64,000 nt of DNA from Myxococcota bacterium (GTDB lineage: Bacteria; Myxococcota; B64-G9): NCBI GenBank assembly GCA_022710975.1, contig JAKLGA010000009.1, forward strand, positions 245,547 to 309,546, in the 5' to 3' direction. Shown one piece after another: positions 49,992-64,000 of the stretch. Made by a program: the position numbers and the translations under genes. The notes under the pieces were generated by a model that searched no databases, was not told where the DNA came from, and saw nothing but the letters and a program-made list of their open reading frames with translations. Numbering within the stretch: position 1 is the first letter of the stretch; each line of letters starts with the position of its first letter.

Positions 49992-51941
49992 ATGGGCAGG
50001 CCGTTCCGCATGCAGAGGTTCCCAGCCGCGCCGGCCAGGACGCCCGTGGCCGCACCGGCCGAGGTCACGCGCTTCGCCACCCACGACGACCTGCTCGAAG
50101 GCGCGCTGGGCATGCTCGAGGCCCGCGCCCACGCCCGCCGCCAGGCCGAGCAGCAGGAGCGCAGCCCGGAGCGCGACCCGGCTCAGGTGGCCGCGGCCTG
50201 GGAGCTGTCCGAGTCCTGGGCGGCCTGGTTCCACGCCAGCTTCGAGCGCAGCAAGGACCGGCTCGTGCTCTGCCGCCGCGTGCTGGAGGCCGGCCTCCTG
50301 CCGCTCGAACGTGAGCTGCTCCTGGCCCTGCTGCTCTCCCAGCTCGGCGCCACCCGCGCCCGCATCAACAACATCGGCGACCTGGTGGACGAGGTGCGCA
50401 CCCCGGGCATGCGCGCCCTGGAGGCGCTGCGCGCCCTCGGCGAGGACAGCCGGCTGGTCCGCTCTGGGCTGGTGTGCTTCGAGGACCCGGACGAGGAGCC
50501 CTCCGAGCGCACCCCGCTCCCGGCGCCCGAGCTGCTGGCCCGCCTGCTCGGCCCGGACGCGACCGCGGGCGAGGAGCCGCGCGGGCTCGAGGTGGACAGC
50601 CAGGAGGCGCTGTTCGGGGCCCTGACCGGCTTCACCCGGGCCGCCCAGGCCAAGGCCGAGGCGCTGTCCGACCGCGCCCGGGCCATGATGATGCGCCGCT
50701 CCCCGGGCCTGCTGCCGCGCCGCATCTACCGGCTCGAGTGCCTGTTCCAGGCCGTCCAGGCCACGCTCGGCGCGCACCCAGACTGGCCGCTCGCCACCCT
50801 GTTCGCCCAGCCCGGCCTCGGGAACGGGGAACGCATGGCGCTCCTCGTGCTCCTCGGCCGCGACGGCGGCCATTTGCCGGCCGATCACCCGCTGTACCTG
50901 GGGCTCGGCCTGGCGCGGGTGCTGGCCCCGTCCGAGGCCCGGGTGGCCGACTGCCTGGGGGCCCTGTCCCCGCGGGGGACCCTGCTCGGGACCGGGCTGG
51001 TGCAGGCCTGCGACGGGCCGGCCGAGCTGCTGTCCGACCACCCGTCCGCGCTGGCCGAAGTCGCCTTCGAGCTGGGCGACCGGGCGCGCGAGCTGCTGGG
51101 GCTGGACGAGGCGCGCAAGGCCCGCGCCGGGGCGGAAGGGGTGCGCGAGGCCCGCGTGCGACTGTCCCAGCTCGTGCTCCCGCCCGCTGTGCGGCTCGCG
51201 CTGCGCATGGCGCTCGCCCAGGCCCGCCACGGCCGGGTGATGCTCGGGGACTGGGGGCTGGGCAAGAGCATCGCCTACGGCCGGGGGGTGACCCTGCTGT
51301 TCTCCGGCCCACCCGGTGTGGGCAAGACCGCCGCGGCCGAGGGGCTGGCCCGCGAGCTCGGGCTGCCCATCCTGGTGGCCGACTACGCCCAGATCCAGAA
51401 CATGTTCGTGGGCGGGACCGAGAAGAACATCGCAGCCACCTTCCGGCGCGCCCGACGGGCCCACGCGCTGCTCTTCTGGGACGAGGCCGACGCCATGTTC
51501 TACGGCCGCGACCAGGGCCAGCGCCCCTGGGAGGTGCGCGACGTGAACGTGCTGCTGACCGAGCTCGAGCGCTTCGAGGGGGTGTGCGTGCTGGCCACCA
51601 ACCGGCCTGGCAGCCTGGACGCGGCCCTGGAGCGGCGGGTGACCCTGAAGGTCGAGTTCAGCGCGCCGGACCGCGTGGCCCGGGAGAAGATCTGGCGGAA
51701 GCTCCTGCCGAGGAAGCTGCCGCTGGCTGAGGACGTGGACCTGGCGCGCCTCGCGGAGGCGGCCTTGAGCGGCGGGGAGATCAAGAACGCCGTGCTGAAC
51801 GCGGCCCGGCTGGCCATCCTGCGTGGGCCGAGGGCGCGGGTGCGCATGGCGGATCTAGAGAAGGCCGTGGCGCTCGAGCTCGGCGGCAGGCTGCAGAAGA
51901 CGAACGTGCATGCCCTGGGATTCCAGGCAGGAGGTGCGTGA
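49992..51941 (+). CDS. AAA+ ATPase with ~400-aa N-terminal domain of unknown function
   Basis: SD AGGAGG before the Met at 49992. C-terminal Walker A (LLFSGPPGVGKTAAAEGLA), Walker B (LLFWDEADAMF), sensor and arginine-finger region. Confidence 0.8.
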   Translation: MGRPFRMQRFPAAPARTPVAAPAEVTRFATHDDLLEGALGMLEARAHARRQAEQQERSPERDPAQVAAAWELSESWAAWFHASFERSKDRLVLCRRVLEAGLLPLERELLLALLLSQLGATRARINNIGDLVDEVRTPGMRALEALRALGEDSRLVRSGLVCFEDPDEEPSERTPLPAPELLARLLGPDATAGEEPRGLEVDSQEALFGALTGFTRAAQAKAEALSDRARAMMMRRSPGLLPRRIYRLECLFQAVQATLGAHPDWPLATLFAQPGLGNGERMALLVLLGRDGGHLPADHPLYLGLGLARVLAPSEARVADCLGALSPRGTLLGTGLVQACDGPAELLSDHPSALAEVAFELGDRARELLGLDEARKARAGAEGVREARVRLSQLVLPPAVRLALRMALAQARHGRVMLGDWGLGKSIAYGRGVTLLFSGPPGVGKTAAAEGLARELGLPILVADYAQIQNMFVGGTEKNIAATFRRARRAHALLFWDEADAMFYGRDQGQRPWEVRDVNVLLTELERFEGVCVLATNRPGSLDAALERRVTLKVEFSAPDRVAREKIWRKLLPRKLPLAEDVDLARLAEAALSGGEIKNAVLNAARLAILRGPRARVRMADLEKAVALELGGRLQKTNVHALGFQAGGA

Positions 51942-52363
51942 TGTCCATCGCCTACGTGACCTGTCCCGACTGGCAGTACATCGAGCTCGCGGGCGAGCAC
52001 CCGGTGATCTCCGGCTGCCGCCGCATCGACGTGCAGCCGGACGACCCGCTGCTCGACTGGAAGAACATCGTGGTCTATCTGGAGTTCCACAGGCCGGATC
52101 GGAAGAACCCGGACGACACCCGCCCCAAGGGGTACACGGGCCGGTTCCTGATCCGGAAGATCGCCCAGTGCATGCGCGGCTACCCGGGCATCCTGCCCAA
52201 CGCGGTCATGCTGCTGCTGGACGAGTACGAGCCGAACGACGTCGAGACGCTGATGATCAAGGAGCAGGTGACCGATCTGCTGGTGCGCGCCGAGCGGGTG
52301 GGCGGGACCCTGAAGGCCCGCAGCATGCTCGAGATCGCCGAGACCACGGCCCCGCCGGCGTGA
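51941..52363 (+). CDS. Hypothetical 140-aa protein translationally coupled to the AAA+ ATPase
   Basis: SD AGGAGGTG 6 nt upstream. ATG overlaps the ATPase stop (TGATG). Confidence 0.55.
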   Translation: MSIAYVTCPDWQYIELAGEHPVISGCRRIDVQPDDPLLDWKNIVVYLEFHRPDRKNPDDTRPKGYTGRFLIRKIAQCMRGYPGILPNAVMLLLDEYEPNDVETLMIKEQVTDLLVRAERVGGTLKARSMLEIAETTAPPA

Positions 52364-52365
52364 GC

Positions 52366-52788
52366 TCACCCCTCCATCTTCGTCACCTTCACCCCGACCT
52401 CGCGCAGCACCCACGCGCCCGTCCGCAGCATGCGCCGCAGCAGGCCGAGGCGGGCGTTCAGGAACCGCTCCAGGCTGAGCCCGACCAGCTGGGTGAATAG
52501 GGTGTAGGCCCCCTTCGAGCTGGAGGGCGGCTGGTAGGTGGGGATCTCCAGGTACTCGGCCGGCGGCTCCCAGATGGCCTCCCAGGTGACCGGGACCAGG
52601 TAGCAGGCCTCGGGGTGGAGGGCGAGCAGGTGCTCCCGGTCGGCCAGCAGCTGGTCCCAGCTCCTGGGGTCATACAGCTCGGACAGGAAGCGCGGCGGCG
52701 GCTGGCCGGGCCAGGCCGGGCCCTCCACCAGGTGGCTGGGCGCGAGGCTCTCCTCCGGGACGACCGCCACGATCAGTGCGTTGCCCAT
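52366..52788 (-). CDS. Hypothetical protein (140 aa)
   Basis: Last gene of the minus-strand XRE-lipoprotein operon. No motif recognized. Confidence 0.45.
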   Translation of the reverse strand: MGNALIVAVVPEESLAPSHLVEGPAWPGQPPPRFLSELYDPRSWDQLLADREHLLALHPEACYLVPVTWEAIWEPPAEYLEIPTYQPPSSSKGAYTLFTQLVGLSLERFLNARLGLLRRMLRTGAWVLREVGVKVTKMEG

Positions 52789-52801
52789 CAGGGGCCTCCG
52801 C

Positions 52802-53868
52802 TCACGGCACGGGGACGATTCTGACCTCGAGCCGGGTGAGGTAGGCGCCCTGGGTCCAGGTGAAGCCGCCAGCCTTCAGGGAGCTCAAGCTCAGCGGGTC
52901 GGCCTGCACCCCCCCGATGAACTCGTAGTCGGTCACGTCGCTGTCGTAGGCCATGAACATCCAGCTATCCGTGGCGTAGATGTCCTCCTGGAAGGACTCG
53001 TTCCACACGGGGTTGTAGTTGTCCGACTTCTCCGTGGTGCTGAAGATTGGCTGCCCGGTGTCCGGGTCCGAGTTGCGGTAGACGCGGACGATCGGATCGG
53101 GCATGCCGCCCGGGAAGTCCCACGCGTCGCCGGACTGGTCGTAGTCGGAGACCGTGGCCGAGACGATGGTGAAGGTGTACCGCCGACCGTAGGCCGGCAC
53201 GCAGTCCCCGCCGATGCACAGCGAGCTCGAGTCGCACACAGCGTGGCTCGCGCAGGTGCAGCGCCCCGTGGCGTCGCAGCCCTGGCCCGTGGGGCAGGTG
53301 CCGCACGACTGCCCGCAGGTGGGATCCGGGCCGCACTCCCGGCCGGTGCAGGTCGGGGTGCAGCCGCCCACGCACAGGCCGTTCCCGTCGCAGGTCTCCC
53401 CGGTCGGGCAGCTGCCGCACGCGGCCTGGCCGCCGCACCCGTCGTCCCAGGAGCCGCACTCGTGGCCGAGCTGGGGGCAGGTGGCGGGCGTGCACGAGCC
53501 GCACCAGCCGTCGTTGTCGAGCACGTCGACGATGTTGTTCCCGCAGGCGGAGCTCTCGATGCACCCGGACAGGATGTTCTCGGGGATGACATAGTCGATG
53601 AGGTCCAGGGTGCAGCTTCCGTCCTCGAAGGTGTGGTCATCCCCGTACGTGAGGCAGGTGCAGTCGCCGTCGTAGACCAAGGGGTACTTGCCCTGGGTCA
53701 CACAGTCGCACTGACAGCAGTCGCGGCCGAGGCAGTAGGTGCCTACTGCCTGGTACACCTGCATCGCCACCCTGGTGCAGTCGTCCTCCGCGTTGCCTCC
53801 CTCGCCGCCGCAGCCGGCGAGCAGGGCAACGAGCATCAGCGCAATCGTCCACTTGCCTTTCCTCATGG
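52802..53868 (-). CDS. Cysteine-rich lipoprotein with CGxCPTGxxCDxxGxC repeats and a C-terminal C2-like (Ca2+/lipid-binding) beta-sandwich
   Basis: SD AGGAGG. Lipobox LLAGCG. CGSCPTGETCDGNGLC / CGTCPTGQGCDATGRC repeats. C-terminal ...RVYRNSDPDTGQPIFSTTEKSDNYNPVWNESF resembles a C2 domain. Confidence 0.65.
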
Positions 53869-54138
53869 TTCTCCTCCTTGGCCGACCGCGACCGCGCTCT
53901 CCGGTCCCAGGCACTGGAGCAGCTCGGCTGGCTGGACCCCGAGCGCGCGGGCCAGGCGGATGATGTTGAGCACGCTCAGGTTCCGCTCACCGCGCTCCAC
54001 GCTGCCCACGTAGGTGCGGTGGAGGCCCGAGCGGAAGGCCAGCTCCTCCTGGGTCAGCCCCTGCTGCTGGCGCTGGTCCCGGATCCATCTCCCCAGGGTC
54101 ACGAGGTCGGGGTCCATGCGCACCTCACGGTAGGCCAC
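53863..54138 (-). CDS. XRE-family helix-turn-helix transcriptional regulator
   Basis: LTQEELAFRSGLHRTYVGSVERGERNLSVLNIIRLARAL (Cro/C1-type HTH). Confidence 0.75.
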   Translation of the reverse strand: MAYREVRMDPDLVTLGRWIRDQRQQQGLTQEELAFRSGLHRTYVGSVERGERNLSVLNIIRLARALGVQPAELLQCLGPESAVAVGQGGEP

Positions 54139-54383
54139 ACCTTGGCGATCGGTCTACAGACTCCGAGTAGCAATGCGGCCTCCAGCGCGGGTTCTCGCAT
54201 CCGCGCGCCACTGCGAGGGTGCATGAGCAAGGCCGGTGCCAGCGGGCTCCCACGCGCGGAACGCCCCGGCGCAAAGGGGATCCGGGCTGGACCCGGGCTG
54301 AAAGGCCGTTCAGCGGGGGATGAGACTCCGGGTCATCAGATTCTGAGCACCCTCCCTTGGAAATGGAAAAGGTCGGAGGATCC

Positions 54384-55109
54384 ATGTCCGATCCGCTCCG
54401 CCTCGGTCGTCAGTCTTCCTGGGGAGAGAGGGCAGGGCACTTGAAGGTGATTGTCCCAGCGCAGGGCGGTCCTGGTGCGAGGATCGAGGACGGGCGGGTG
54501 CGGGTCTGCCTGCACCTGCACACCCGGCCCCGCTCCTCGGACGCCTCCCTGGATCCAGTCGACGCGCTGTGCATGGCCGCCGCGGCCGGGGCGGACTTCC
54601 TGGTGCTGACCGAGCACGACGCATCCTGGACCCCTGCGGCCCTGGCCGAGCTCCGCGCGGCCGCCGGGCCCGAGGCCGCCAGGACCGTCCCCCTGGGCGG
54701 CCGGGAGCTGTGCCTGCCCGACGCCCACCTGCTGGTGGTGGGCGCCTTGCCACCGCTTGCGCCGGAGCTGATGGGACCAGGCCAGACCCGGGCCCTGGTC
54801 GAGGCGCTGCACCGGGCTGGCTGCGCGGTGGTGCTGGCACATCCCTGGGACGTTCGCTGGCAGATCCCGCCCCGGATGGCAAAGGAGTGGGGCGTGGATG
54901 CGGTGGAGGTCGTGGGCGCCCGGCACCGCGAGCCTGGCGATGCCGGGCTGGCCGCCATGCGGGCCGCGGGCCTCCCGGGCGTGGCCGGCGTGGACGCCCA
55001 CCACCCGGAGCACCTCGGCCTGATCCCGGCCTGCCTGACCCTGGTGCCTGGCTGGGTGAGGGACGAAGCAGGCTTGATCCGGGCCATCCGGAGGGGAGAG
55101 GTGGCCTGA
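54384..55109 (+). CDS. PHP-domain metal-dependent phosphoesterase
   Basis: SD GGAGG before the Met at 54384. CLHLHT...SSDAS N-terminal His motif, later HPWDV / VDAHHP. Confidence 0.65.
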   Translation: MSDPLRLGRQSSWGERAGHLKVIVPAQGGPGARIEDGRVRVCLHLHTRPRSSDASLDPVDALCMAAAAGADFLVLTEHDASWTPAALAELRAAAGPEAARTVPLGGRELCLPDAHLLVVGALPPLAPELMGPGQTRALVEALHRAGCAVVLAHPWDVRWQIPPRMAKEWGVDAVEVVGARHREPGDAGLAAMRAAGLPGVAGVDAHHPEHLGLIPACLTLVPGWVRDEAGLIRAIRRGEVA

Positions 55110-55146
55110 ACCTGTCGACGCCTGCGGGATGTGGGATCTGACTGAA

Positions 55147-55204
55147 CACCGTGTCTGGTGGCAGGTGTCTGGTTTGAACCAGCCACCAGACTCCAGACAC
55201 GGTG
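55147..55204. repeat. 58-bp imperfect palindrome centred on CTGGTTTGAACCAG. Outer arms CACCGTGTCTGG / CCAGACACGGTG perfect.
   Basis: Read in the sequence. The core is related to the tRNA-like motif at 48744-48763. Confidence 0.7.
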
Positions 55205-55281
55205 CCTCGACCATCGCACCGTTTGTCAGATCCCCGCCCACCCCGGCGTCGGTATTCTCAGAAGCAAGGAAAGGAGCCCCC

Positions 55282-55488
55282 ATGTACGCGAAAGCCAGGC
55301 AGGGTGAGCTGACCGACCTGTCGTCGCAACAGGTGTCGCTGGTGAAGTGCGCGAGCGAGTTCAACTACCGGGTGCTGATGAGCAAGAAGGACCCGTGGGT
55401 CGAGCCGGACCCGCGGACCTTCCCGAAGCTCGACCAGCTGGCGCAGATCCTGTTGACCGCGCCGGCCCCGCTGCTGCCCGACTGCTAG
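55282..55488 (+). CDS. Small hypothetical protein (68 aa)
   Basis: SD AAGGAAAGGAG. Moderate-complexity sequence. Confidence 0.4.
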   Translation: MYAKARQGELTDLSSQQVSLVKCASEFNYRVLMSKKDPWVEPDPRTFPKLDQLAQILLTAPAPLLPDC

Positions 55489-55561
55489 GGGCACCCGGGG
55501 AGAGTCAGATCCCTGGCGTACAGATCGTCTGTTCCCGTAGGGACAAAGGAGGTCCCGGACC

Positions 55562-56896
55562 ATGGAGACGATCGCGAGCGCGGCGGTGGCGTTCCTGGTG
55601 GGTGGCGTGCTGGCCTTCCTGGTGACCGCGCTCCTCATGCGCCGGGCCGCCAGCGCCGAGCTCGCCCGGCTGGCCGGGTTGCTGTCCGTCGAGCGCGAGG
55701 GGCGCATCCGGGTGGAGAGCCAAGCCCAGGAGACCGGGCGGCGGCTCGAGGAGGAGAAGGCGCTCCTCTCCGAGGCCCAGACCCGGCTCACCGACGCCTT
55801 CAAGGCGCTGGCCGGCGACGCGCTCAGCGCGAACCAGGCCGCCTTCCTGCAGCTCGCCCAGGAGCGCCTCGCCAAGCTGGTCGGCCAGGCCCAGGGTGAC
55901 CTCGGCCAGATGGCGGTGCAGACCCGGGGCGACCTGGGCAAGCACCAGGAGGCGCTCACCGGGCTGCTCGCCCCGATCGCCGAGAAGCTCAAGGCCTTCG
56001 ACGACCACCTCCACGTCCTGGAGAAGCTCCGGCTCGAGTCCGCCACCCGGCTGGAGGGCCAGATCAGCGGCCTTACCGGCTGCCAGGAGAAGCTGCAGAA
56101 GGAGACCAAGAACCTGGCGAACGCGCTCCAGCACCCCCAGGTGCGCGGCCGCTGGGGCGAGGTGACGCTGCGGCGGGTGGTGGAGCTCGCCGGCATGAGC
56201 GCGCATTGCGACTTCGACGAGCAGGTCACGGTCCAGGACGCCGAGGGCGCCAGGCAGCGGCCCGATCTGGTGGTGCGCCTGCCGGGCGGGCAGAACCTGG
56301 TGGTGGACTCCAAGGTGGCGCTCGAGGCCTACCTGCGCGCCGTCGAGTCCCCGGACGAGGCCACGCGCCAGGCCTGCCTGGCGGACCACGCCCGCCAGAC
56401 CCGGAAGCACATGGACGCCCTGGCCTCGAAGAGCTACTGGAGCAAGTTCGAGCCCACCCCGGAGTTCGTGGTGATGTTCATTCCAGGGGAGTCCTTCTTC
56501 GCCGCGGCTGTGGATCAGGACCCCACCCTCATCGAGGACGGCATGGCGAGCAGAGTCGTGCTGGCCACCCCGACCACGCTCATCGCGTTGCTGCTCTCCG
56601 TGGCCTACGGCTGGCGCCAGGAGCAGCTCGCGGAGAACGCCCAGCGCATCAGCGAGGCGGGCCGGCAGGTGCACGAGCGCCTGGCCAAGCTGGTCGGCTT
56701 CCTGGCGAAGTTCGGTGGGCAGATCCACAGCCTGACCGCGTGCTACAACGAGGCGGTCGGCTCGCTCGAGTCGCGGCTCCTCCCGGCCGCCCGCAGGCTG
56801 GAGGAGCTGGGCGCAGGCAGCGAGAAGGCGATCCCGGTCCTCGAGCCGGTGGACCTGGTGCCCAGGGCGCTGGAGGCGGGGAAGGAGGGGGAGTGA
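55562..56896 (+). CDS. rmuC: DNA recombination protein RmuC
   Basis: N-terminal TM and coiled coil. RmuC core (GRWGEVTLRRVVELAGM, FVVMFIPGESFF). Confidence 0.85.
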   Translation: METIASAAVAFLVGGVLAFLVTALLMRRAASAELARLAGLLSVEREGRIRVESQAQETGRRLEEEKALLSEAQTRLTDAFKALAGDALSANQAAFLQLAQERLAKLVGQAQGDLGQMAVQTRGDLGKHQEALTGLLAPIAEKLKAFDDHLHVLEKLRLESATRLEGQISGLTGCQEKLQKETKNLANALQHPQVRGRWGEVTLRRVVELAGMSAHCDFDEQVTVQDAEGARQRPDLVVRLPGGQNLVVDSKVALEAYLRAVESPDEATRQACLADHARQTRKHMDALASKSYWSKFEPTPEFVVMFIPGESFFAAAVDQDPTLIEDGMASRVVLATPTTLIALLLSVAYGWRQEQLAENAQRISEAGRQVHERLAKLVGFLAKFGGQIHSLTACYNEAVGSLESRLLPAARRLEELGAGSEKAIPVLEPVDLVPRALEAGKEGE

Positions 56897-57025
56897 AGGT
56901 CAGCACCGTACCCGGCGAGGTGCCGCCAGGTCTTGCCTCCCATTTGACCTCTGTCAGTCGCTTGCTGCTCAGGCTGCGGGAGGTGGGGTCGCGATCGGAC
57001 GATTCGGAAGAGGGCGGCGTGAGAG

Positions 57026-59326
57026 CTATTCGATGGCGATGATGTACACCGCCCCAGAGTTGGTTCCAAGAGTATCCTGCGTGTAGTCCCCAACGATTGC
57101 AGTGCTCCCGCTGAGCGAAACTGAGTTTCCAAAGGAGTCGATCCCTTCGGTCACAGGTGAATCTACACGCAGGAGCAGGCTCCAGGTTGCGTCTGGATTG
57201 CGGCGGAAGAAGTGAACGTCGTTTTCGGTATGGCTACTTCCGACAGCTAGAGTGTCATTGAACAGGCTTACAGATAGGCCAAAACCATTCTGGGCTGGTG
57301 AGCTTGGTAATACCTTAGCCTCGTGCTCCCATGTGTTTGACCCCGTTCTCCTGAAGATGTAAACAGCTCCGGAACCGGTCGTTATGCCGTCCTTTCCTTG
57401 CGCTCCCATGGCGATCCAGTCGCCATAGATACTTGCCGCAAAGCCGAAATTGTCGTCGGCTGCAGCGTCGTAAGCCACGATCTCAGTGGCGTTACCCCAC
57501 GAATTTACGTCGGTACGTTGAAACACAAATGCCGTTCCAGCCCCTCCACTAGCGCCGACGACTGCGTAGTCTCCATCGACTGCAACTGAGGATCCAAAGC
57601 CTTGCCCGCCCGGCGCGGCGATGACCGTGCCAGCATCCCAAGTGTTTTCTCCAGTGCGATGATATATGTACGCTGTGTTGGCGTTCCGGGCTCCAACGAT
57701 GGCATAGTCACCACTGAGGCAGACAGCGGCTCCGAAGAAGGCGCCTCCCTGGAACCTTACTCCAGCATCCCAGGAATTGATGTCTGTTCTGTGAAAAATA
57801 TACGCTGAATTTTTCCGGTGTTCACCGACAATTGCATAGTCACCACTGATCGAGACGAACATGCCGAAATTCGAATTCACTTCAGGATTGTGGGAGTACA
57901 CCCTTGTCCCAGTGTCCCACATGTTCGGCCCAGTCCTGTGGATGATGTGCGCTGAGCCAGCATTCGAGTCCACACCATAGGAACCGATTATCGCATAGTC
58001 CCCATCAATTGCTACCCCCGTCCCAAAGTATCCATACTCTGAGGGCTCAGGTGAATAGAGCTCGGATATGTCAACACAGATGCTCTGATTGATGCACGAC
58101 TCTCCTTCACGGCAGCATGTTCCGTTGCAGACCACCCAGCCGCAGTTGCAGCTTCCACTGGCATCGCAGAGTTCGCCAGCCTCACATGTTCCGCAATCGA
58201 ACCCACCGCGCGGCGAAGGACCGCACAGCCTCCCGACGCAATCATCGAAGCATTGGCCATCAGCATCACACCATTCAGTTGCACCCGGACAAGTACCACA
58301 ACTGTATCCTGCGTTGGGAGATGGCCCACAGCTTCGACCGATGCAGTCATCCTCACATTGGCCAGCAGCAGTGCAGTATTCTGTCGCCCCGCCACATGTT
58401 CCACAGTTATGTCCATCGTTGGGCGACGGTCCACAAGTTCGGCCCAGGCAGTCGTCAACGCATTGACCAGCGCTTGTGCAATAATCCGTCACTCCTTGGC
58501 AACTCCCGCAATCAAGGCTCAAGTGAGGCGAAGGACCGCAGACTCTTCCAAGGCAATCGTCACCGCACTGGCCGCCATCGGAGCAATAGTCGTCTGCCAC
58601 TGAACATACCCCGCATGAAAGGCCAAGTGTAGGCGACAGCCCACAAATTCGCCCAACGCAGTCGTCAATGCAATGGCCCTCTGGATCGCAGTACTCTGTC
58701 TGGAGAGCACAGGAACCGCAGAAGAAGCCCGGACGGTTTGGGGATGCACCGCAGACCCTGCCAGCGCAGTCGTCCAGGCACTGCCCCGCGGCCGTGCAGT
58801 AGTCGTTCTCTCCGCTGCAGGTCCCGCAGGTGTGGCCGAGCGTCGGGGAGAGGCCGCACTCCAGGCCCGCGCAGTCATCCACGCAGGCCCCCTCCTCCGA
58901 GCAGTACTCATCCTCTCCCTCGCATCCGCCGCAGTCGAACCCCGCCACGGGCGAGGTCCCGCACCGGCCCAGACAGTCGTCGATGCACTGGTTTCCGGCA
59001 GGGACACAGTACTGGGTCGGGCCTGAACAGCTGCCGCAGAGCTTTCCGATGTTCGGCGACTGACCGCAGAACCGTCCAGCGCAGTCGTCGATGCATACCT
59101 TGGCTGGCGTGCAGTACAGGTCCCCATCACAGGTGCCATCGGAGTAGCAGGGCTCGCCGAGGTTTCCAGCCGCGAAGCATCGGTAGTCGACGCAGGCCAG
59201 GCCGCTGTTGCAGGTACCGTTGTCCCTGCACGGTTCGCCGGAGTGGCCGACCCCGTGGAGGCCGATGTCGCAGCCTGCGGCACCGGCCAGCAGCGAAGCC
59301 AGGATGACGAGCGTGGAGTTGCGCAT
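57026..59326 (-). CDS. Lipoprotein with ~9 tandem Cys-rich repeats (DDCxGRxCGxSPxxGxxCGxCxGxxxYCxxxGxC) and C-terminal FG-GAP-type beta-propeller repeats. Reduced GC.
   Basis: SD GGAGGTG before the Met at 59326. Lipobox LLAGAAGC. Repeated GDYAIVG...FG.SV...GDYA blades. Confidence 0.7.
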   Translation of the reverse strand: MRNSTLVILASLLAGAAGCDIGLHGVGHSGEPCRDNGTCNSGLACVDYRCFAAGNLGEPCYSDGTCDGDLYCTPAKVCIDDCAGRFCGQSPNIGKLCGSCSGPTQYCVPAGNQCIDDCLGRCGTSPVAGFDCGGCEGEDEYCSEEGACVDDCAGLECGLSPTLGHTCGTCSGENDYCTAAGQCLDDCAGRVCGASPNRPGFFCGSCALQTEYCDPEGHCIDDCVGRICGLSPTLGLSCGVCSVADDYCSDGGQCGDDCLGRVCGPSPHLSLDCGSCQGVTDYCTSAGQCVDDCLGRTCGPSPNDGHNCGTCGGATEYCTAAGQCEDDCIGRSCGPSPNAGYSCGTCPGATEWCDADGQCFDDCVGRLCGPSPRGGFDCGTCEAGELCDASGSCNCGWVVCNGTCCREGESCINQSICVDISELYSPEPSEYGYFGTGVAIDGDYAIIGSYGVDSNAGSAHIIHRTGPNMWDTGTRVYSHNPEVNSNFGMFVSISGDYAIVGEHRKNSAYIFHRTDINSWDAGVRFQGGAFFGAAVCLSGDYAIVGARNANTAYIYHRTGENTWDAGTVIAAPGGQGFGSSVAVDGDYAVVGASGGAGTAFVFQRTDVNSWGNATEIVAYDAAADDNFGFAASIYGDWIAMGAQGKDGITTGSGAVYIFRRTGSNTWEHEAKVLPSSPAQNGFGLSVSLFNDTLAVGSSHTENDVHFFRRNPDATWSLLLRVDSPVTEGIDSFGNSVSLSGSTAIVGDYTQDTLGTNSGAVYIIAIE

Positions 59327-59327
59327 C

Positions 59328-61016
59328 TTACCACCTCCCCCCAAAGGAGAAGGTCGCTCCACCGTCGGTGGGGACGATGGAGAGCGCTTCCGGGTGGTCC
59401 TTGAACCACTCCCTGTCCTCTGGCGCCATGAACCACAGGACGGCGCCGGCCACGAGCAGGGCGAAGCCGGTGCCGAAGCTCGCGTACATGACGCCCGCCC
59501 AGGTCCGGCTCTTCCCGGCGGCGTCCGGGTCTCCTGCCTTGTCGTCATCCCCGTACGTGTAGGTGAGGCCGGTCGCGGCCGCTCCGAGCACCGACAACCC
59601 CACGCCCGACCAGAAGAGCCCGTGAGCCCACCTGGCCATCGGGTTCATGGGGTAGATCCGGGCCAGGGACAGGGCGACCACGGCTTCTTGCCCCGCCTGG
59701 AGATCGACCTCCTGGACCACTCCCACGTGGCCCTCCAGCGTGGCCTCGATCCGGTACTTCCCCGCAGGGAGATCCCTCCTCAGGGGGGCGGAGGCGCCCG
59801 GCTCCTGGCCGATGGCGACGAGCGCACCGGGCGGATCCGTCTCGACGACGAGGCTCGCCGGCGGAATCGTCCGCAAGGCCACCTTCAATTCGGTTCGCAT
59901 CCCGTTGGCGATCACGAACTCCCGCCTCTCGGGCAGGTACCCCTCCATCTCGATGACCGCGAAGTACGAACCAGCCTCCAGGTTGTTGGCCGCAAAGGGG
60001 GCCTCAGCCTCGGCCAGGGTCTGCCCTTCCGAGTTCTCCAGCGACACATTGGCCCCCCTGGGCTCCGAGGTGACCCACAAGACACCGGGCTGGGTGTTCC
60101 TCAGGGTGATCTTCAGGGTGGTGTCCTTGTTGGATTCCACGGTCACCTGGTACTGGTTGGCGGCGAAGCCCTCGAGCTCCGCGGTCACCTTGTAGGTGCC
60201 CTCGCGCAGCGCGACCAGGATGGGCGAAGGCCCCAGCTTGTTGTAGCCGCTGATCAGCACAGAGGCGCCAGCCGGCTCCGTCGTGACCGTGAGCCGTCCC
60301 GGAACGATCTCCCGCAGCAGCCTCTGCCCCTCTGCCTCGTAGGGATTGTCGCCGGCGTACGCGGAGAGGAAATGATGGAGCAAGCGCACTCTCGTTTCCA
60401 GCTGGACGGACTCATCCTTCGCCAGAGAGTAGAGGTACGACCAGTTGCTCCTTATCTCTTCCTGCAGCTCCTTGGCATTCCTGGTGTCCTTGAGTAGCTC
60501 CTCGAACTCGAGCACCGCCTGTGTGGAGCCCGCTTCCCTGGCTTTCGCGGGCTGGCAGAGCTTCGCGGCGATCGTCCTGATGGCCGCCAGCAGTGATTCC
60601 TCCTTGCAGGTGGAATCACCCGTCGCGGCGCCCTCCGTGGCGGCTTTCTTCAGATCATAGAGTGTCGCGGTCACCTGGCAGGTGTTGCCGATCTTCAGGA
60701 TCTGGGAGGAGAGGGTCTTCTGCGCGGCCAGCTCCCCGCCGAGCTCGATCTGGCAGCTCGCGTCGTAGCAGGCCTTGTAGCTGTCCTTCTTCTGCTGGAC
60801 CAGCCTCTCCTTGATCTGTTCGCGGGGAACCAGGCCGAATCCGCACTCGGCCAGGCTGGCCGAGAGAAACTCCGTCAGGTTCTGCCGGGTCTTCGGGTCG
60901 AGCCCCGAGCCGCGGTCCTCCATGTCGAACACGGCCACGAGGGGCAGGTTCTGCCCCTGGGCCACGCTGGGCCATACGGGAAGGCCAATGACCGCCAGCA
61001 AGACTAGCCGCCTCAT
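59328..61016 (-). CDS. Secreted protein with three PEGA domains and a C-terminal TM segment
   Basis: Internal Met MRRLVLLAVIGLPVWPSVAQG. PEGA-like TTEPAGASVLISG...YKVTAELEGF (x3). Confidence 0.65.
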   Translation of the reverse strand: MRRLVLLAVIGLPVWPSVAQGQNLPLVAVFDMEDRGSGLDPKTRQNLTEFLSASLAECGFGLVPREQIKERLVQQKKDSYKACYDASCQIELGGELAAQKTLSSQILKIGNTCQVTATLYDLKKAATEGAATGDSTCKEESLLAAIRTIAAKLCQPAKAREAGSTQAVLEFEELLKDTRNAKELQEEIRSNWSYLYSLAKDESVQLETRVRLLHHFLSAYAGDNPYEAEGQRLLREIVPGRLTVTTEPAGASVLISGYNKLGPSPILVALREGTYKVTAELEGFAANQYQVTVESNKDTTLKITLRNTQPGVLWVTSEPRGANVSLENSEGQTLAEAEAPFAANNLEAGSYFAVIEMEGYLPERREFVIANGMRTELKVALRTIPPASLVVETDPPGALVAIGQEPGASAPLRRDLPAGKYRIEATLEGHVGVVQEVDLQAGQEAVVALSLARIYPMNPMARWAHGLFWSGVGLSVLGAAATGLTYTYGDDDKAGDPDAAGKSRTWAGVMYASFGTGFALLVAGAVLWFMAPEDREWFKDHPEALSIVPTDGGATFSFGGRW

Positions 61017-61084
61017 GCCCGACCCTCCGAGATGTTCTCGCCGTGGGAAGTGTACCACGGCGGACAGGTAGCGTGAGCGGCAGG

Positions 61085-62752
61085 TCACTCGCTGGGCCAG
61101 CCGTTGAGGCCCTTCATGGCCTCGAACTCCGACGGGTCGGGGTAGCGAGAGCACTCCTGGACGGCCATGCCGGTTTTTACGTGGTACATGGATGGCTTCT
61201 TCCGGTCCAGCCTCAGGGCCACGCAGAAGCTGTCCCGGATCATCTGGCCGAAGGCGTTCGGCGCGTCCACCACGACGTGCACGATGTACAGGTCACCGCG
61301 GTTGGCGACCACGTTGACCACCTGGAACACCGCCTCCATCGGCGAGCGCAGGTTCTCCAGGATCTCGCTCCGGGCGGCCAGCTTGGCCTCCCGGTGGTGG
61401 GCCTTGCCCCATGCGAGCAGCGTCCGCTCGGCCTGCTTCTCGGCGCGCTCGGCCGCGGCCTCGCGCCTGGCCTCGACAGCGTCCGCCTGGTCCAGGACCG
61501 CCTGGCAGCTCTTCGTGTGGCGCTCCGAGTCCATCCCCAGGCACTCGTTGGCCGCCTCCCGGGCCGCCTCCAGATCGCCTCGCGCCAGGACGGTCCTCGC
61601 CTTCGCGAGCTGCGCGTCCGCGCGGCGCAGGTCCACCTTCGCCGTCAGCGCTGCCAGGGCCAGCGCCCCGGGGTCGTCCTTGGGCAGCAGCCCGGCCGGT
61701 GCGGCCGCCTCGTCGGTGGTCTCCGCGGCCGCGTCGAGATCGCCCTTGGCCAGGGCCTTCTCGATCTGCTTCACGGCCGCGGCCACCAGGCGCTGGCGCT
61801 CGGCGCGATCGATCTCGTCCTGCTTCTGGCGTTCCGAGGCGCGGGCCTGCTGGAGCCTGACCCGCAGCTCGGCCAGGCCGGCCGTGTCCTTGTCGAAGGT
61901 GTCGGCGCTCCGGAGGGCGGCCTCCGCCTTGTCCAGCCCGCCCGCCTCCATGGCTACCCTGGCCTGGGCGGTGAAGGCCACGGCCTTGAGCTTGTGCAGC
62001 GGGAGGGTGGCCAGCCTGTTGCCTTCCGAGTGGATCACCGCGTCTTCCCACGCCGACGGCTCTTCCCAGACCCTGCGCAGGCGTTCCTTCAGCCCGATGC
62101 GCAGCTCGCCGCGGGCGTCGGTCCTGCCCAGCGGCAGCGGCCTCTCCAGGCTCCTGTGCACCAGGGAGAGCTCCACGTCCGCTGCCGGCGTCTCGCGGCA
62201 CCAGCGCAGGTCCCGGCCCTTCTCGACGGTGACCTCGGGGATCTCCTCCTCGTAGTCCGCGTTCCGCGCGGCCTCGGCGGTGAACCAGATCAGCACGGGC
62301 ACCGACGCGCCCACCCCGCCCACGCCGCCCCACTTCAGGACCTCGAGCGTCGTCTCGGACGGGCCGTCGACCGGATCGGGCTCGGCCGCGGCGCCCACGA
62401 TGGCCAGGATGGAGCCGCCGATCAGCAGGAAGCCCCCGAGCACCGCCGGGAACCAGGGGCCGAAGCCGCCGGCCTGCTCCCGGACCACGAAGTGGGTGCC
62501 GGCCTTCTTCACGAAGTGGGGCAGGGCGCACTCCTCGCGGCGCGTGAGCCTGCAGACGGCCTGCATGCCTGGCTCCTCCTGGCATTGCCCGAGGAGCTCG
62601 GTCTTGCCCGTGGGCGTCTCGGCGCCGTCGAAACGGCCGATCTCGCGCCACTCGTCCCGCGTGGTGACGTTCTGCGCCATGCAGCCCGGCAGCTGCGCGG
62701 TGAGCAGCGCGGGGAGCAGCATGGCCAGGATGGGTCGCAGGAACGCCCTCAT
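61085..62752 (-). CDS. Hypothetical lipoprotein with central coiled-coil/Ala-rich region
   Basis: Lipobox LTAQLPGC. An internal TM-like segment (FPAVLGGFLLIGGSILAIVGAAA) precedes the long AEAALR/DLEAAREA-type helical region. Confidence 0.55.
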   Translation of the reverse strand: MRAFLRPILAMLLPALLTAQLPGCMAQNVTTRDEWREIGRFDGAETPTGKTELLGQCQEEPGMQAVCRLTRREECALPHFVKKAGTHFVVREQAGGFGPWFPAVLGGFLLIGGSILAIVGAAAEPDPVDGPSETTLEVLKWGGVGGVGASVPVLIWFTAEAARNADYEEEIPEVTVEKGRDLRWCRETPAADVELSLVHRSLERPLPLGRTDARGELRIGLKERLRRVWEEPSAWEDAVIHSEGNRLATLPLHKLKAVAFTAQARVAMEAGGLDKAEAALRSADTFDKDTAGLAELRVRLQQARASERQKQDEIDRAERQRLVAAAVKQIEKALAKGDLDAAAETTDEAAAPAGLLPKDDPGALALAALTAKVDLRRADAQLAKARTVLARGDLEAAREAANECLGMDSERHTKSCQAVLDQADAVEARREAAAERAEKQAERTLLAWGKAHHREAKLAARSEILENLRSPMEAVFQVVNVVANRGDLYIVHVVVDAPNAFGQMIRDSFCVALRLDRKKPSMYHVKTGMAVQECSRYPDPSEFEAMKGLNGWPSE

Positions 62753-63005
62753 GTCACCTCCTCGTGGATCGTCGCGGAAGGGTCTCCTCCGAGCGTAGTG
62801 CCCGACCCGCCTCGGCTTCTACAGCCGATAGTCATCATGGGCGGGACCAGACTTCTGCCCGACTGGAAGGGAGGACGACCATGGGCGTGGGAATCTGACC
62901 GGTTGGGCAGAGAAAACGGCGTGCGAGTGTGCTAGAATTCCACTTCGTTGGTGCTCTGGCGAGGAACCGACGCTGAAGCCGTGGCGCAAGAGGGAGGTGG
63001 ATTCC

Positions 63006-64000
63006 ATGGGTCTCGAGGAAGAACTCGAGCGAAATCAAGCTGCACTGGAGGAGATTATTGAGATCACTTGTGAGAGACCCGATTCGATCATCCTGTTCCT
63101 ACCTGTAGATTCTGGTGAACGGTTGGCTGAAGCAGAAAAGGCGAGGCTTGCTTTCCCAAAGCTGTTCGGACTTGAGCCGAAGTTATGTTCCGCTGAAAAC
63201 GCTTTGTTGTCTGCTAGCACGAGGGATGCGAAATCTGAAGCGAACCCTCTGCGACATTGTGTATTCGGTATAAAGCGGATGTCTATCGGAAGCCTCACCC
63301 AACAGATCGATCGGCTGCCGAGGTCACTATCCATCTATTGCGATGCAAATTGGTTGTCGGGGTCGATGGCTTTTAGGGCATTCCTGTTGAAACACTACTA
63401 CATTCGATGGTTGGTTTGGATTGATAACGAGAGAGTGACTTGCTCTATTCCTGCCGTGATTTCTAGATTAGTTCTTATTCGCGCCATTGCGAAGGGTAGT
63501 TCGACTCCGCCATTGCTTCGGGTGGCTTCGATTATGGGTAACGATCTTACAGCCTCAGTTGATAGGATTAGAGAGTGCCGAAGGATGAAATCAGTCGGTG
63601 ACTATGGACGGACGATTATCATAGCATCTAGTGAATCGCTACTTCCGGGTATGCCTTGGTTCTTTGGCAGCTTTCAAAAAGACCACTTTGAAAATCTCGG
63701 GGCCTTTAGCGAGCTGATCAAGATTGGAGAGGCGGTGCACCTTCGTGATGTAGCTGCCCTTCTCCGCCCAATCGCAAAGGGTGCTTTCGGAAAAGATGAT
63801 ATTGATGAAGACGAGTCGACACCTGGGGATAAAGGTGTCCCATGCTACTGTGGCTCTGATGTTTGCGCGGACGGAACGCTAAGGAATCCTAGCCGCTATG
63901 TTCCTAGGGATTCTGTTGACAAGGACAACCTTCTTCTTGAAGGAGATATTCTGGTTCCTTCGGTTTACTCGGGAACACTGCTGCCAACCGCAAGGATCAG
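63006..64000 (+). CDS. Partial ORF of unknown function in a low-GC segment (>331 codons, no stop before window end)
   Basis: SD GGAGGTG before ATG at 63006. Open frame to 64000. Visual GC about 47% vs about 70% elsewhere. Not in the ORF track because it has no stop. Confidence 0.5.
   Translation, partial: MGLEEELERNQAALEEIIEITCERPDSIILFLPVDSGERLAEAEKARLAFPKLFGLEPKLCSAENALLSASTRDAKSEANPLRHCVFGIKRMSIGSLTQQIDRLPRSLSIYCDANWLSGSMAFRAFLLKHYYIRWLVWIDNERVTCSIPAVISRLVLIRAIAKGSSTPPLLRVASIMGNDLTASVDRIRECRRMKSVGDYGRTIIIASSESLLPGMPWFFGSFQKDHFENLGAFSELIKIGEAVHLRDVAALLRPIAKGAFGKDDIDEDESTPGDKGVPCYCGSDVCADGTLRNPSRYVPRDSVDKDNLLLEGDILVPSVYSGTLLPTARI

Follow-up and report, generated by a model that had tools for sequence, protein, structure and literature searches.

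Near its right-hand end, the 64,000-nt stretch of DNA from a Myxococcota bacterium analysed here (hereafter the window) falls abruptly in G + C content, and a long open reading frame (ORF) runs from there off the edge, so the question is whether this DNA is foreign, whether the ORF is a real gene and what its product might do. The first-pass annotation, which was made from the sequence alone, had placed the change to about 47% GC at about 62930, had pointed to AT-rich codons such as AAA, ATT and TTT, and had taken the stretch as foreign DNA carrying an "unannotatable" ORF that opens at 63006 with a good Shine-Dalgarno sequence, is still open at 64000 and may belong to an uncharacterised family.

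The Low-GC Gene and Its Extent

The background GC of the window is 0.65-0.79 per kb, as against 0.490 for 63001-64000. The drop from about 0.70 to 0.49 takes place at about 62900-63000: 200-nt windows have a GC of 0.65 (62700-62899), then 0.55 (62900-63099) and then 0.465-0.535 up to 64000, so the position and level given at first were essentially right, and over the intergenic region and the gene start the series is 0.65, 0.625, 0.55 and 0.49. The codons had also been read correctly, since the ORF contains 14 ATT (10 ATC), 6 AAA (8 AAG) and 5 TTT (7 TTC) codons and uses GAT freely as well; the adjoining lipoprotein gene has no ATT, no TTT and one AAA. The features at this end of the window are the following.

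62753..63005, no strand, intergenic region from which the lipoprotein gene (minus strand) and the low-GC gene diverge, from the sequence, with the GC transition at about 62900-63000
62992..62997, plus strand, Shine-Dalgarno sequence GGGAGG, 8 nt upstream of the ATG, from the sequence
63006..64000, plus strand, first 331 of the 753 codons of the acquired gene, from the translation, 100%-identical contigs, GC and GC3, and homology to the relatives P0001-P0010

The lipoprotein gene (61085-62752, minus strand) has a product beginning MRAFLRPILAMLLPALLTAQLPGC, the lipobox LPGC included, and an exact-sequence look-up of this lipoprotein gave 14 public metagenome contigs. L003 (ENA ERZ27257456) and L005 (JGI 3300010429, a 319-kb contig) are 100% identical to 51085-64000 of the window, so the extension of the contig that the first-pass annotation had called for could be made through identical contigs. 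The whole gene occupies 63006-65267 in extended window coordinates (L005:9747-7486, minus strand of L005, where a window-oriented position is 72753 minus the L005 coordinate). In the 100%-identical contigs the ORF is neither short nor disrupted downstream but continues without interruption for 753 codons plus a stop, and the same sequence is present in four contigs from four samples. The good ribosome-binding site and the 331 codons open to the window edge are thus as first described; the translation quoted at that time came from the same ORF, but the true N-terminus, MGLEEELERNQ, has one E more. The intergenic region 62753-63005 contains no convincing sigma-70 promoter and no terminator above shuffle expectation.

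The 753-codon gene has a GC of 0.508 and a GC3 of 0.557, as against a GC3 of 0.88-0.97 in the flanking genes, so it has not yet adapted to the composition of its host. Moreover, the 2.26-kb window from 63001 has the lowest GC of the 72.7-kb extended contig (0.508; mean 0.702, sd 0.047) and the largest tetranucleotide distance (0.73; mean 0.255, sd 0.092), and by these measures, too, the foreign-DNA claim was sound. The anomaly covers one gene only: GC is 0.47-0.57 over L005 7350-9800 and 0.65-0.73 outside, returning to the latter level about 130 nt past the stop. The low-GC DNA is a single horizontally acquired gene, not a multi-gene island. An adjacent integrase, transposase or tRNA, which had been suggested as something to look for, was not found: integrase and transposase Pfam domains are absent from the called genes within 10 kb on either side of the lipoprotein gene (8.7 kb past the window end), and the low-GC locus has no detected tRNA, no Rfam family and no meaningful flanking direct or inverted repeats.

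The public gene callers took only the C-terminal 304-355 of the 753 codons on each of four contigs (L003, L004, L005 (7486-8544) and L006), which is best explained by a gene model trained on high GC. Consequently, the N-terminal methylase-like and TRD part, left uncalled by the public pipelines, is missing from protein databases, and for this reason a first homologue search with the N-terminal 331 amino acids was empty. These calls would also suit the notion that the ORF arose by chance or that only its C-terminal part is translated, but this is scarcely credible, because 753 open codons at 50% GC have a chance of roughly (61/64)^753, about 2e-16, a good Shine-Dalgarno sequence and ATG stand at 63006, and relatives are collinear with the product from residue ~95 to the end, the in-window part included.

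A Rare Family of Proteins

Neither the 331-aa fragment nor the full-length window protein has a sequence match in Pfam, NCBIfam, PADLOC or PDB. A phmmer search of 1.84 billion representatives with the fragment gave 10 distant relatives (P0001-P0010) of 720-774 aa with E values of 1.5e-9 to 4e-4, and pattern scans added one further MAG locus (Thermoanaerobaculia) and 14 metagenome loci. The full-length window protein is collinear in alignments with all the relatives found, the nearest of which, P0001, matches it with an E value of 2e-68 over 619 aa at only 30.5% identity, so the donor of the gene is unsampled. In the numbering of the window protein, R124, G198, W218, H475, R480, E502, R599, H604, C705, C708, E712, G732 and H733 are invariant; across 16 members, R599 and H604 never vary and N600 is kept in at least 90%, and the window protein reads WRNEASHL at 598-605. 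In a neighbour-joining tree, the members that lie in operons form one clade, and the solo members, the window protein included, branch deeper.

Scans of phage, plasmid and viral-contig collections with the window protein, and of viral contigs with a family profile, gave no relatives, nor did a scan of genome contigs with the window protein alone. In PADLOC-DB v2, no family was matched by the full-length window protein or by the L011 member. Matches to CSS_CxxC (E 0.17), PDC-M05B (E 0.058), WXG100_2 (in P0006, E 0.007) and mad5 (E 0.003) were sub-threshold and were rejected. The gene belongs to a rare, unnamed family of anti-phage defence islands. The suspicion of an uncharacterised family has therefore held, with no match in the four sequence databases and 10 relatives among 1.84 billion representatives; the ORF is not "unannotatable", since extension of the gene, the family alignment and fold comparison allow an architecture and a likely defence role to be assigned.

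Domain Architecture

The domains were assigned by way of an AlphaFold2 model of P0001 (11-sequence alignment, pLDDT 78, pTM 0.60), which was compared with the PDB; the model of the window fragment itself is weak (pLDDT 61). Foldseek with the P0001 model gave M.TaqI (E 2.7e-9), CamA, M.BseCI, BrxX/PglX and BpuSI, that is, a fold of the gamma-class N6-adenine methyltransferases of the Eco57I/TaqI type followed by a TRD. The predicted parts are as follows.

63282..63764, plus strand, methylase-like Rossmann core, codons about 93-253, with motifs around R124, W135 (IRWLVWID), G197-G198 and W218
63819..64000, plus strand, putative TRD start, codons 272-331 of about 272-397, from alignments, domain mapping and fold searches with the P0001 model
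Codons 272-397, putative TRD as a whole, mapped from the P0001 model
Codons 399-462, beyond the window, specificity-subunit-like helices
Codons 465-636, beyond the window, putative HEPN domain with R599-N600-x3-H604
Codons 639-739, beyond the window, Cys/His beta domain with C705, C708, E712, G732 and H733 (the invariant CxxC...E...GH signature)

At the level of the fold, the protein thus appears to have a four-part architecture made up of a dead gamma-class N6-adenine methylase fold, a TRD with specificity-subunit-like helices, a HEPN domain and a C-terminal beta domain, of which the window takes in the methylase-like domain and the TRD as far as its first third. HEPN and the TRD were assigned from the predicted model of a relative that is 30% identical, built on a shallow alignment of 11 sequences. 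The region assigned to HEPN is an all-alpha, up-and-down helical bundle with the conserved Rx4-6H motif; Pfam HEPN models did not detect it, the best being HEPN_Swt1 with an E value of 0.15 in one of the 16 members, and a PDB profile search found no HEPN chain. The protein does not have the make-up of HsdS (two TRDs with two conserved-region helices and an adjacent hsdM), since there is one TRD with helices and no hsdM at the locus; PADLOC Specificity_I matches three relatives weakly (E 1e-3 to 6e-3) and the window protein not at all.

The catalytic motif IV, (D/N/S)PP(Y/F/W), searched for as [DNS]PP[YFWH], is absent from all 16 members, the corresponding position reading FGIKRM in the window protein and VPPR or IPPR in a few relatives, and the SAM-binding motif I, an acidic residue with a Gly-rich loop, is conserved in none of them. 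Because of this, the methylase module is very probably inactive. The best structural matches (M.TaqI, CamA, M.BseCI, HsdM and PglX) could also be taken to mean that the protein is an active N6-adenine DNA methyltransferase, either an orphan or one resembling Type IIG, but this is highly improbable in view of the two missing motifs, of residues 1-100, which are the least conserved block (majority fraction 0.27-0.30), and of the Pfam models Eco57I, N6_Mtase and MmeI_Mtase, which match neither the window protein nor any of the 16 members even at E values up to 5.

Neighbourhoods of the Relatives

About 12 neighbourhoods are informative, and the relatives are associated with defence islands, most of these neighbourhoods holding bona fide defence systems. 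P0006 lies behind a Type I HsdR and a YgjP-like gene, L010 adjoins Zorya ZorA, ZorC (EH_Signature domain) and ZorD (SNF2 + Mrr nuclease), in L017 Kiwa (KwaA/KwaB) and GmrSD adjoin the family gene, and P0010 has a STAND-like protein, GmrSD-HNH, YjiT and YjiV downstream. P0002 is followed by a CTD2/unknown/SMC_N trio, which we take to resemble Wadjet. The neighbourhood of P0004 (FtsH-like, SpoIIE, metallophosphatase) is not clearly defensive.

In one clade, the family gene is translationally coupled to a STAS-GHKL-STAS partner inside DISARM-like operons. A gene of this partner type, encoding STAS_2 + HATPase_c + DUF4325 (STAS-like) in 400-490 aa, lies directly upstream in L007, L008, L011, L015-17, L019, P0003, P0005, P0009 and P0010, and where the overlap of the two genes was read it is 4 nt (L007, L011, L019 and P0003) or 8 nt (P0009). 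With an E value of 1e-77, this GHKL-STAS partner aligns with the N-terminal end of a PADLOC DrmA model. In addition, a DrmMI-like Eco57I methylase is present in P0005, P0009, L011 and L017, an SNF2 (DrmD/DpdE-like) helicase in P0005, L011 and L017, and a 1730-aa DEAD/Helicase_C/MZB DrmA-like protein in P0005; loci of this type (P0005, P0009, L011 and L017) are DISARM-like operons.

Two further observations concern the same module. At L017 4882-6296, Kiwa (KwaA, E 5e-37; KwaB, E 6e-69) lies nested, with the DrmMI-like methylase on one side and the pair of GHKL-STAS and family genes on the other, and GmrSD is directly downstream. L020 127-1062 and L021 4225-5041 are degraded remnants of the module, containing a fragment from the C-terminal end of the methylase, codons 1-50 of the GHKL-STAS gene and about 95 codons of the family gene (residues 384-477).

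The Window Locus

Downstream of the low-GC gene there are, in order, two Zn-ribbon ORFs, a 156-aa ORF, a DEAD helicase, a HATPase_c_3 protein and a STAND gene. No methylase and no GHKL-STAS partner lies beside the gene, and none of the DISARM genes drmA, drmB, drmC, drmD and drmMI was found at the locus. The HATPase_c_3 protein was ruled out as the counterpart of the relatives' GHKL-STAS partner because the two are not homologous, and it has no PDB relative either.

The two small Zn-ribbon ORFs (L005 6813-7274, extended window 65479-65940) are directly 3' of the low-GC gene, one of 82 aa with two CxxC pairs around a Gly/Ala-rich segment and one of 61 aa with a double zinc ribbon; the relative P0004 has a 195-aa Zn-ribbon protein upstream (L024 4323-4910). 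After them comes a pair of genes of native GC on the plus strand (L005 1590-6114, extended window 66639-71163), which encode an 851-aa DEAD/Helicase_C helicase and then the HATPase_c_3 (MORC-like) protein of 631 aa. The helicase matches BrxHI (1e-34) and SngC (5e-28) in PADLOC, no PADLOC system is matched by the two as a pair, and the pair presumably resembles prokaryotic MORC/paraMORC + SF2 helicase modules of the restriction-modification (R-M)-like kind. About 6 kb beyond the low-GC gene at 63006-65267, on the minus strand (L005 1-1609, extended window 71144-72752), lies another low-GC gene (GC 0.49, GC3 0.52) for a 700-aa STAND-type ATPase (ATPase_2/nSTAND6, weak matches), and since this gene, too, abuts high-GC genes, repeated single-gene acquisitions of defence-type genes in the region are suggested. 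The best explanation of the low-GC gene at 63006 is that it was acquired recently and is set in the defence-gene neighbourhood of a bacterium of about 70% GC.

Further inside the window, a second compositional dip is seen at 57026-59548 on the minus strand, where the 3' two-thirds of an 840-aa ORF have a GC of 0.49-0.60 and the called 766-aa gene a GC3 of 0.62. The product has Cys-rich CGxSP repeats and then seven FG-GAP repeats, and the public callers split or shorten the ORF differently from contig to contig (766, 278 or 298 aa). In a PEGA-domain lipoprotein gene (59328-61154, minus strand), 13 substitutions, which change 9 amino acids, set L006 apart from the window; all of them fall within the 182 bp of 60686-60867, and over 14.4 kb the two sequences are otherwise identical, which makes this stretch a local patch of hypervariability or recombination. 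The substitution types are mixed and so do not look like the adenine-specific mutagenesis of a diversity-generating retroelement.

Proposed Mechanism and Alternatives

We lean towards the explanation that the window gene encodes a solo, recently acquired defence protein in which a dead methylase/TRD DNA sensor would act through a HEPN RNase. The dead-methylase/TRD module would be a sequence-specific, possibly methylation-state-sensitive DNA sensor, the specificity-subunit-like helices would dimerise the protein as in half-HsdS and pair two HEPN domains, and recognition of DNA, or loss of an inhibitory partner, would switch on the HEPN RNase, whose activity would lead to translation shutdown or abortive infection. 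Where the gene lies in an operon, its STAS-GHKL-STAS partner may control the RNase through partner switching, as CapK-like kinases suggest by analogy. For the window protein we thus infer DNA binding, dimerisation, RNase activity, a trigger and an anti-phage or anti-plasmid role. The solo state of the window copy, which has neither an adjacent methylase nor the GHKL-STAS partner, counts against the sensor model with respect to self/non-self discrimination. A bolder form of the proposal is possible but doubtful, namely that the protein is a self-contained, single-polypeptide "restriction-like" immune sensor in which a dead adenine methylase and TRD, reading a DNA motif or the state of its methylation, directly gate a fused HEPN RNase, so that recognition of foreign DNA would lead to cleavage of RNA without a DNase, and that the operonic form is a new effector arm of DISARM-like systems under STAS-GHKL partner switching.

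A different role, which we consider unlikely, is that of a non-catalytic specificity or adaptor subunit of an R-M or DISARM-like system, with a HEPN domain that is merely structural or regulatory, so that the solo copy would be an orphaned and possibly functionless remnant. This would suit the operonic clade, in the whole of which the gene is the last of DrmA-like/SNF2/Eco57I-methylase/GHKL-STAS operons, as well as the TRD with its specificity-subunit-like helices and the want of all these partners beside the window copy. However, R599, N600 and H604 vary little or not at all across the 16 members, the solo ones too, the solo copies are full length and occur in several deep branches, and four samples carry the window copy in identical, intact form. 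Still less probable is a HEPN protein with a role outside defence, such as the toxin in an addiction module of the toxin-antitoxin kind, or a regulatory or RNA-processing factor that mobile DNA happens to carry along. HEPN domains are also known from toxin-antitoxin systems and from RNA processing (PMC3710099), and the setting of P0004 and the small Zn-ribbon ORF after the window gene would agree with such a role, but the family has no conserved antitoxin-like partner such as MNT, bona fide defence systems occupy most of the informative neighbourhoods and the DNA-methylase/TRD module points to DNA sensing.

Comparison with Known Systems

The sensor-effector reading, in which a dead methylase/TRD module acts through HEPN, can be compared with several known systems. 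The gamma-class N6-adenine methyltransferases with a C-terminal TRD (M.TaqI, CamA, M.BseCI, and the Type IIG Eco57I-type modules, BREX PglX/BrxX and DISARM DrmMI) lack the HEPN and Cys/His beta domains of the window family, and the family in turn is without motifs IV and I and without a Pfam methylase match. In DndH of the DndFGH system, a TRD with an inactive MTase has been proposed as a DNA-recognition module (PMC10853773), and the window family would likewise reuse a decayed methylase and TRD for DNA recognition in a defence effector; unlike DndH, which has a REase DNase and a HerA/FtsK ATPase (PMC10853773), it would have a HEPN effector and another domain order, and no sequence relationship between the two was found.

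HEPN RNases linked to R-M, namely the PrrC/RloC anticodon nucleases and 16 or more HEPN clades in R-M neighbourhoods, are regarded as latent, RNA-targeting effectors of the second line, and for HEPN proteins of this kind, PrrC among them, it has been argued that DNA recognition or loss of an inhibitor releases the RNase (PMC3710099). The window family resembles them in that an Rx4-6H HEPN would be coupled physically or genomically to R-M components, but the known ones are fused to ABC ATPases, helicases, REases or AAA+ (PMC3710099), whereas here the partner would be a dead methylase/TRD and the HEPN region has no Pfam match. The 2013 HEPN survey stated that R-M-linked HEPN domains are fused to nucleases, helicases and ATPases "but not to the methylases" (PMC3710099); a methylase-fold partner without modification, as predicted from the model, fits the logic of the survey, yet would be a new architecture.

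As for Class 1 DISARM (DrmA, DrmB, DrmC, DrmD and DrmMI), one clade of the family lies in operons with DrmA-like, DrmD/DpdE-like SNF2 and DrmMI-like Eco57I methylase genes, but PADLOC counts neither the family protein nor its GHKL-STAS partner among the components of DISARM, the family protein matches no DISARM model, and there is no DISARM gene near the window copy. Esub1 (8VSQ) is a half-HsdS homodimer with one TRD, held together by a dimerisation helix (PMC11754733); compared with it and with Type I specificity subunits, the TRD of the window family sits as a single one in a four-domain protein with no hsdM beside it. CapK-like STAS-GHKL kinases control the VapC RNase toxin in a STAS-GHKL + STAS + VapC module (PMC13373217), and the partner in the operonic clade, STAS_2 + HATPase_c + DUF4325, stands directly before a protein with a putative RNase domain in the same manner. 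This likeness to CapK/CapS applies to the relatives only, the window locus being without such a gene.

Biological Meaning

The window gene is a variation on known kinds, that is, R-M-linked HEPN effectors and inactive-methylase sensors, and is not a categorically new system. It is also a reminder that low-GC defence genes in high-GC genomes can be cut by gene callers, as only the C-terminal 40-47% of this one has ever been called. If the proposed mechanism is true, the family would represent a new wiring, in which sequence-specific DNA recognition by a decayed methylase/TRD feeds an RNA-targeting HEPN effector, and the GHKL-STAS protein together with the family protein would be an unrecognised effector-regulator pair in DISARM-like operons.
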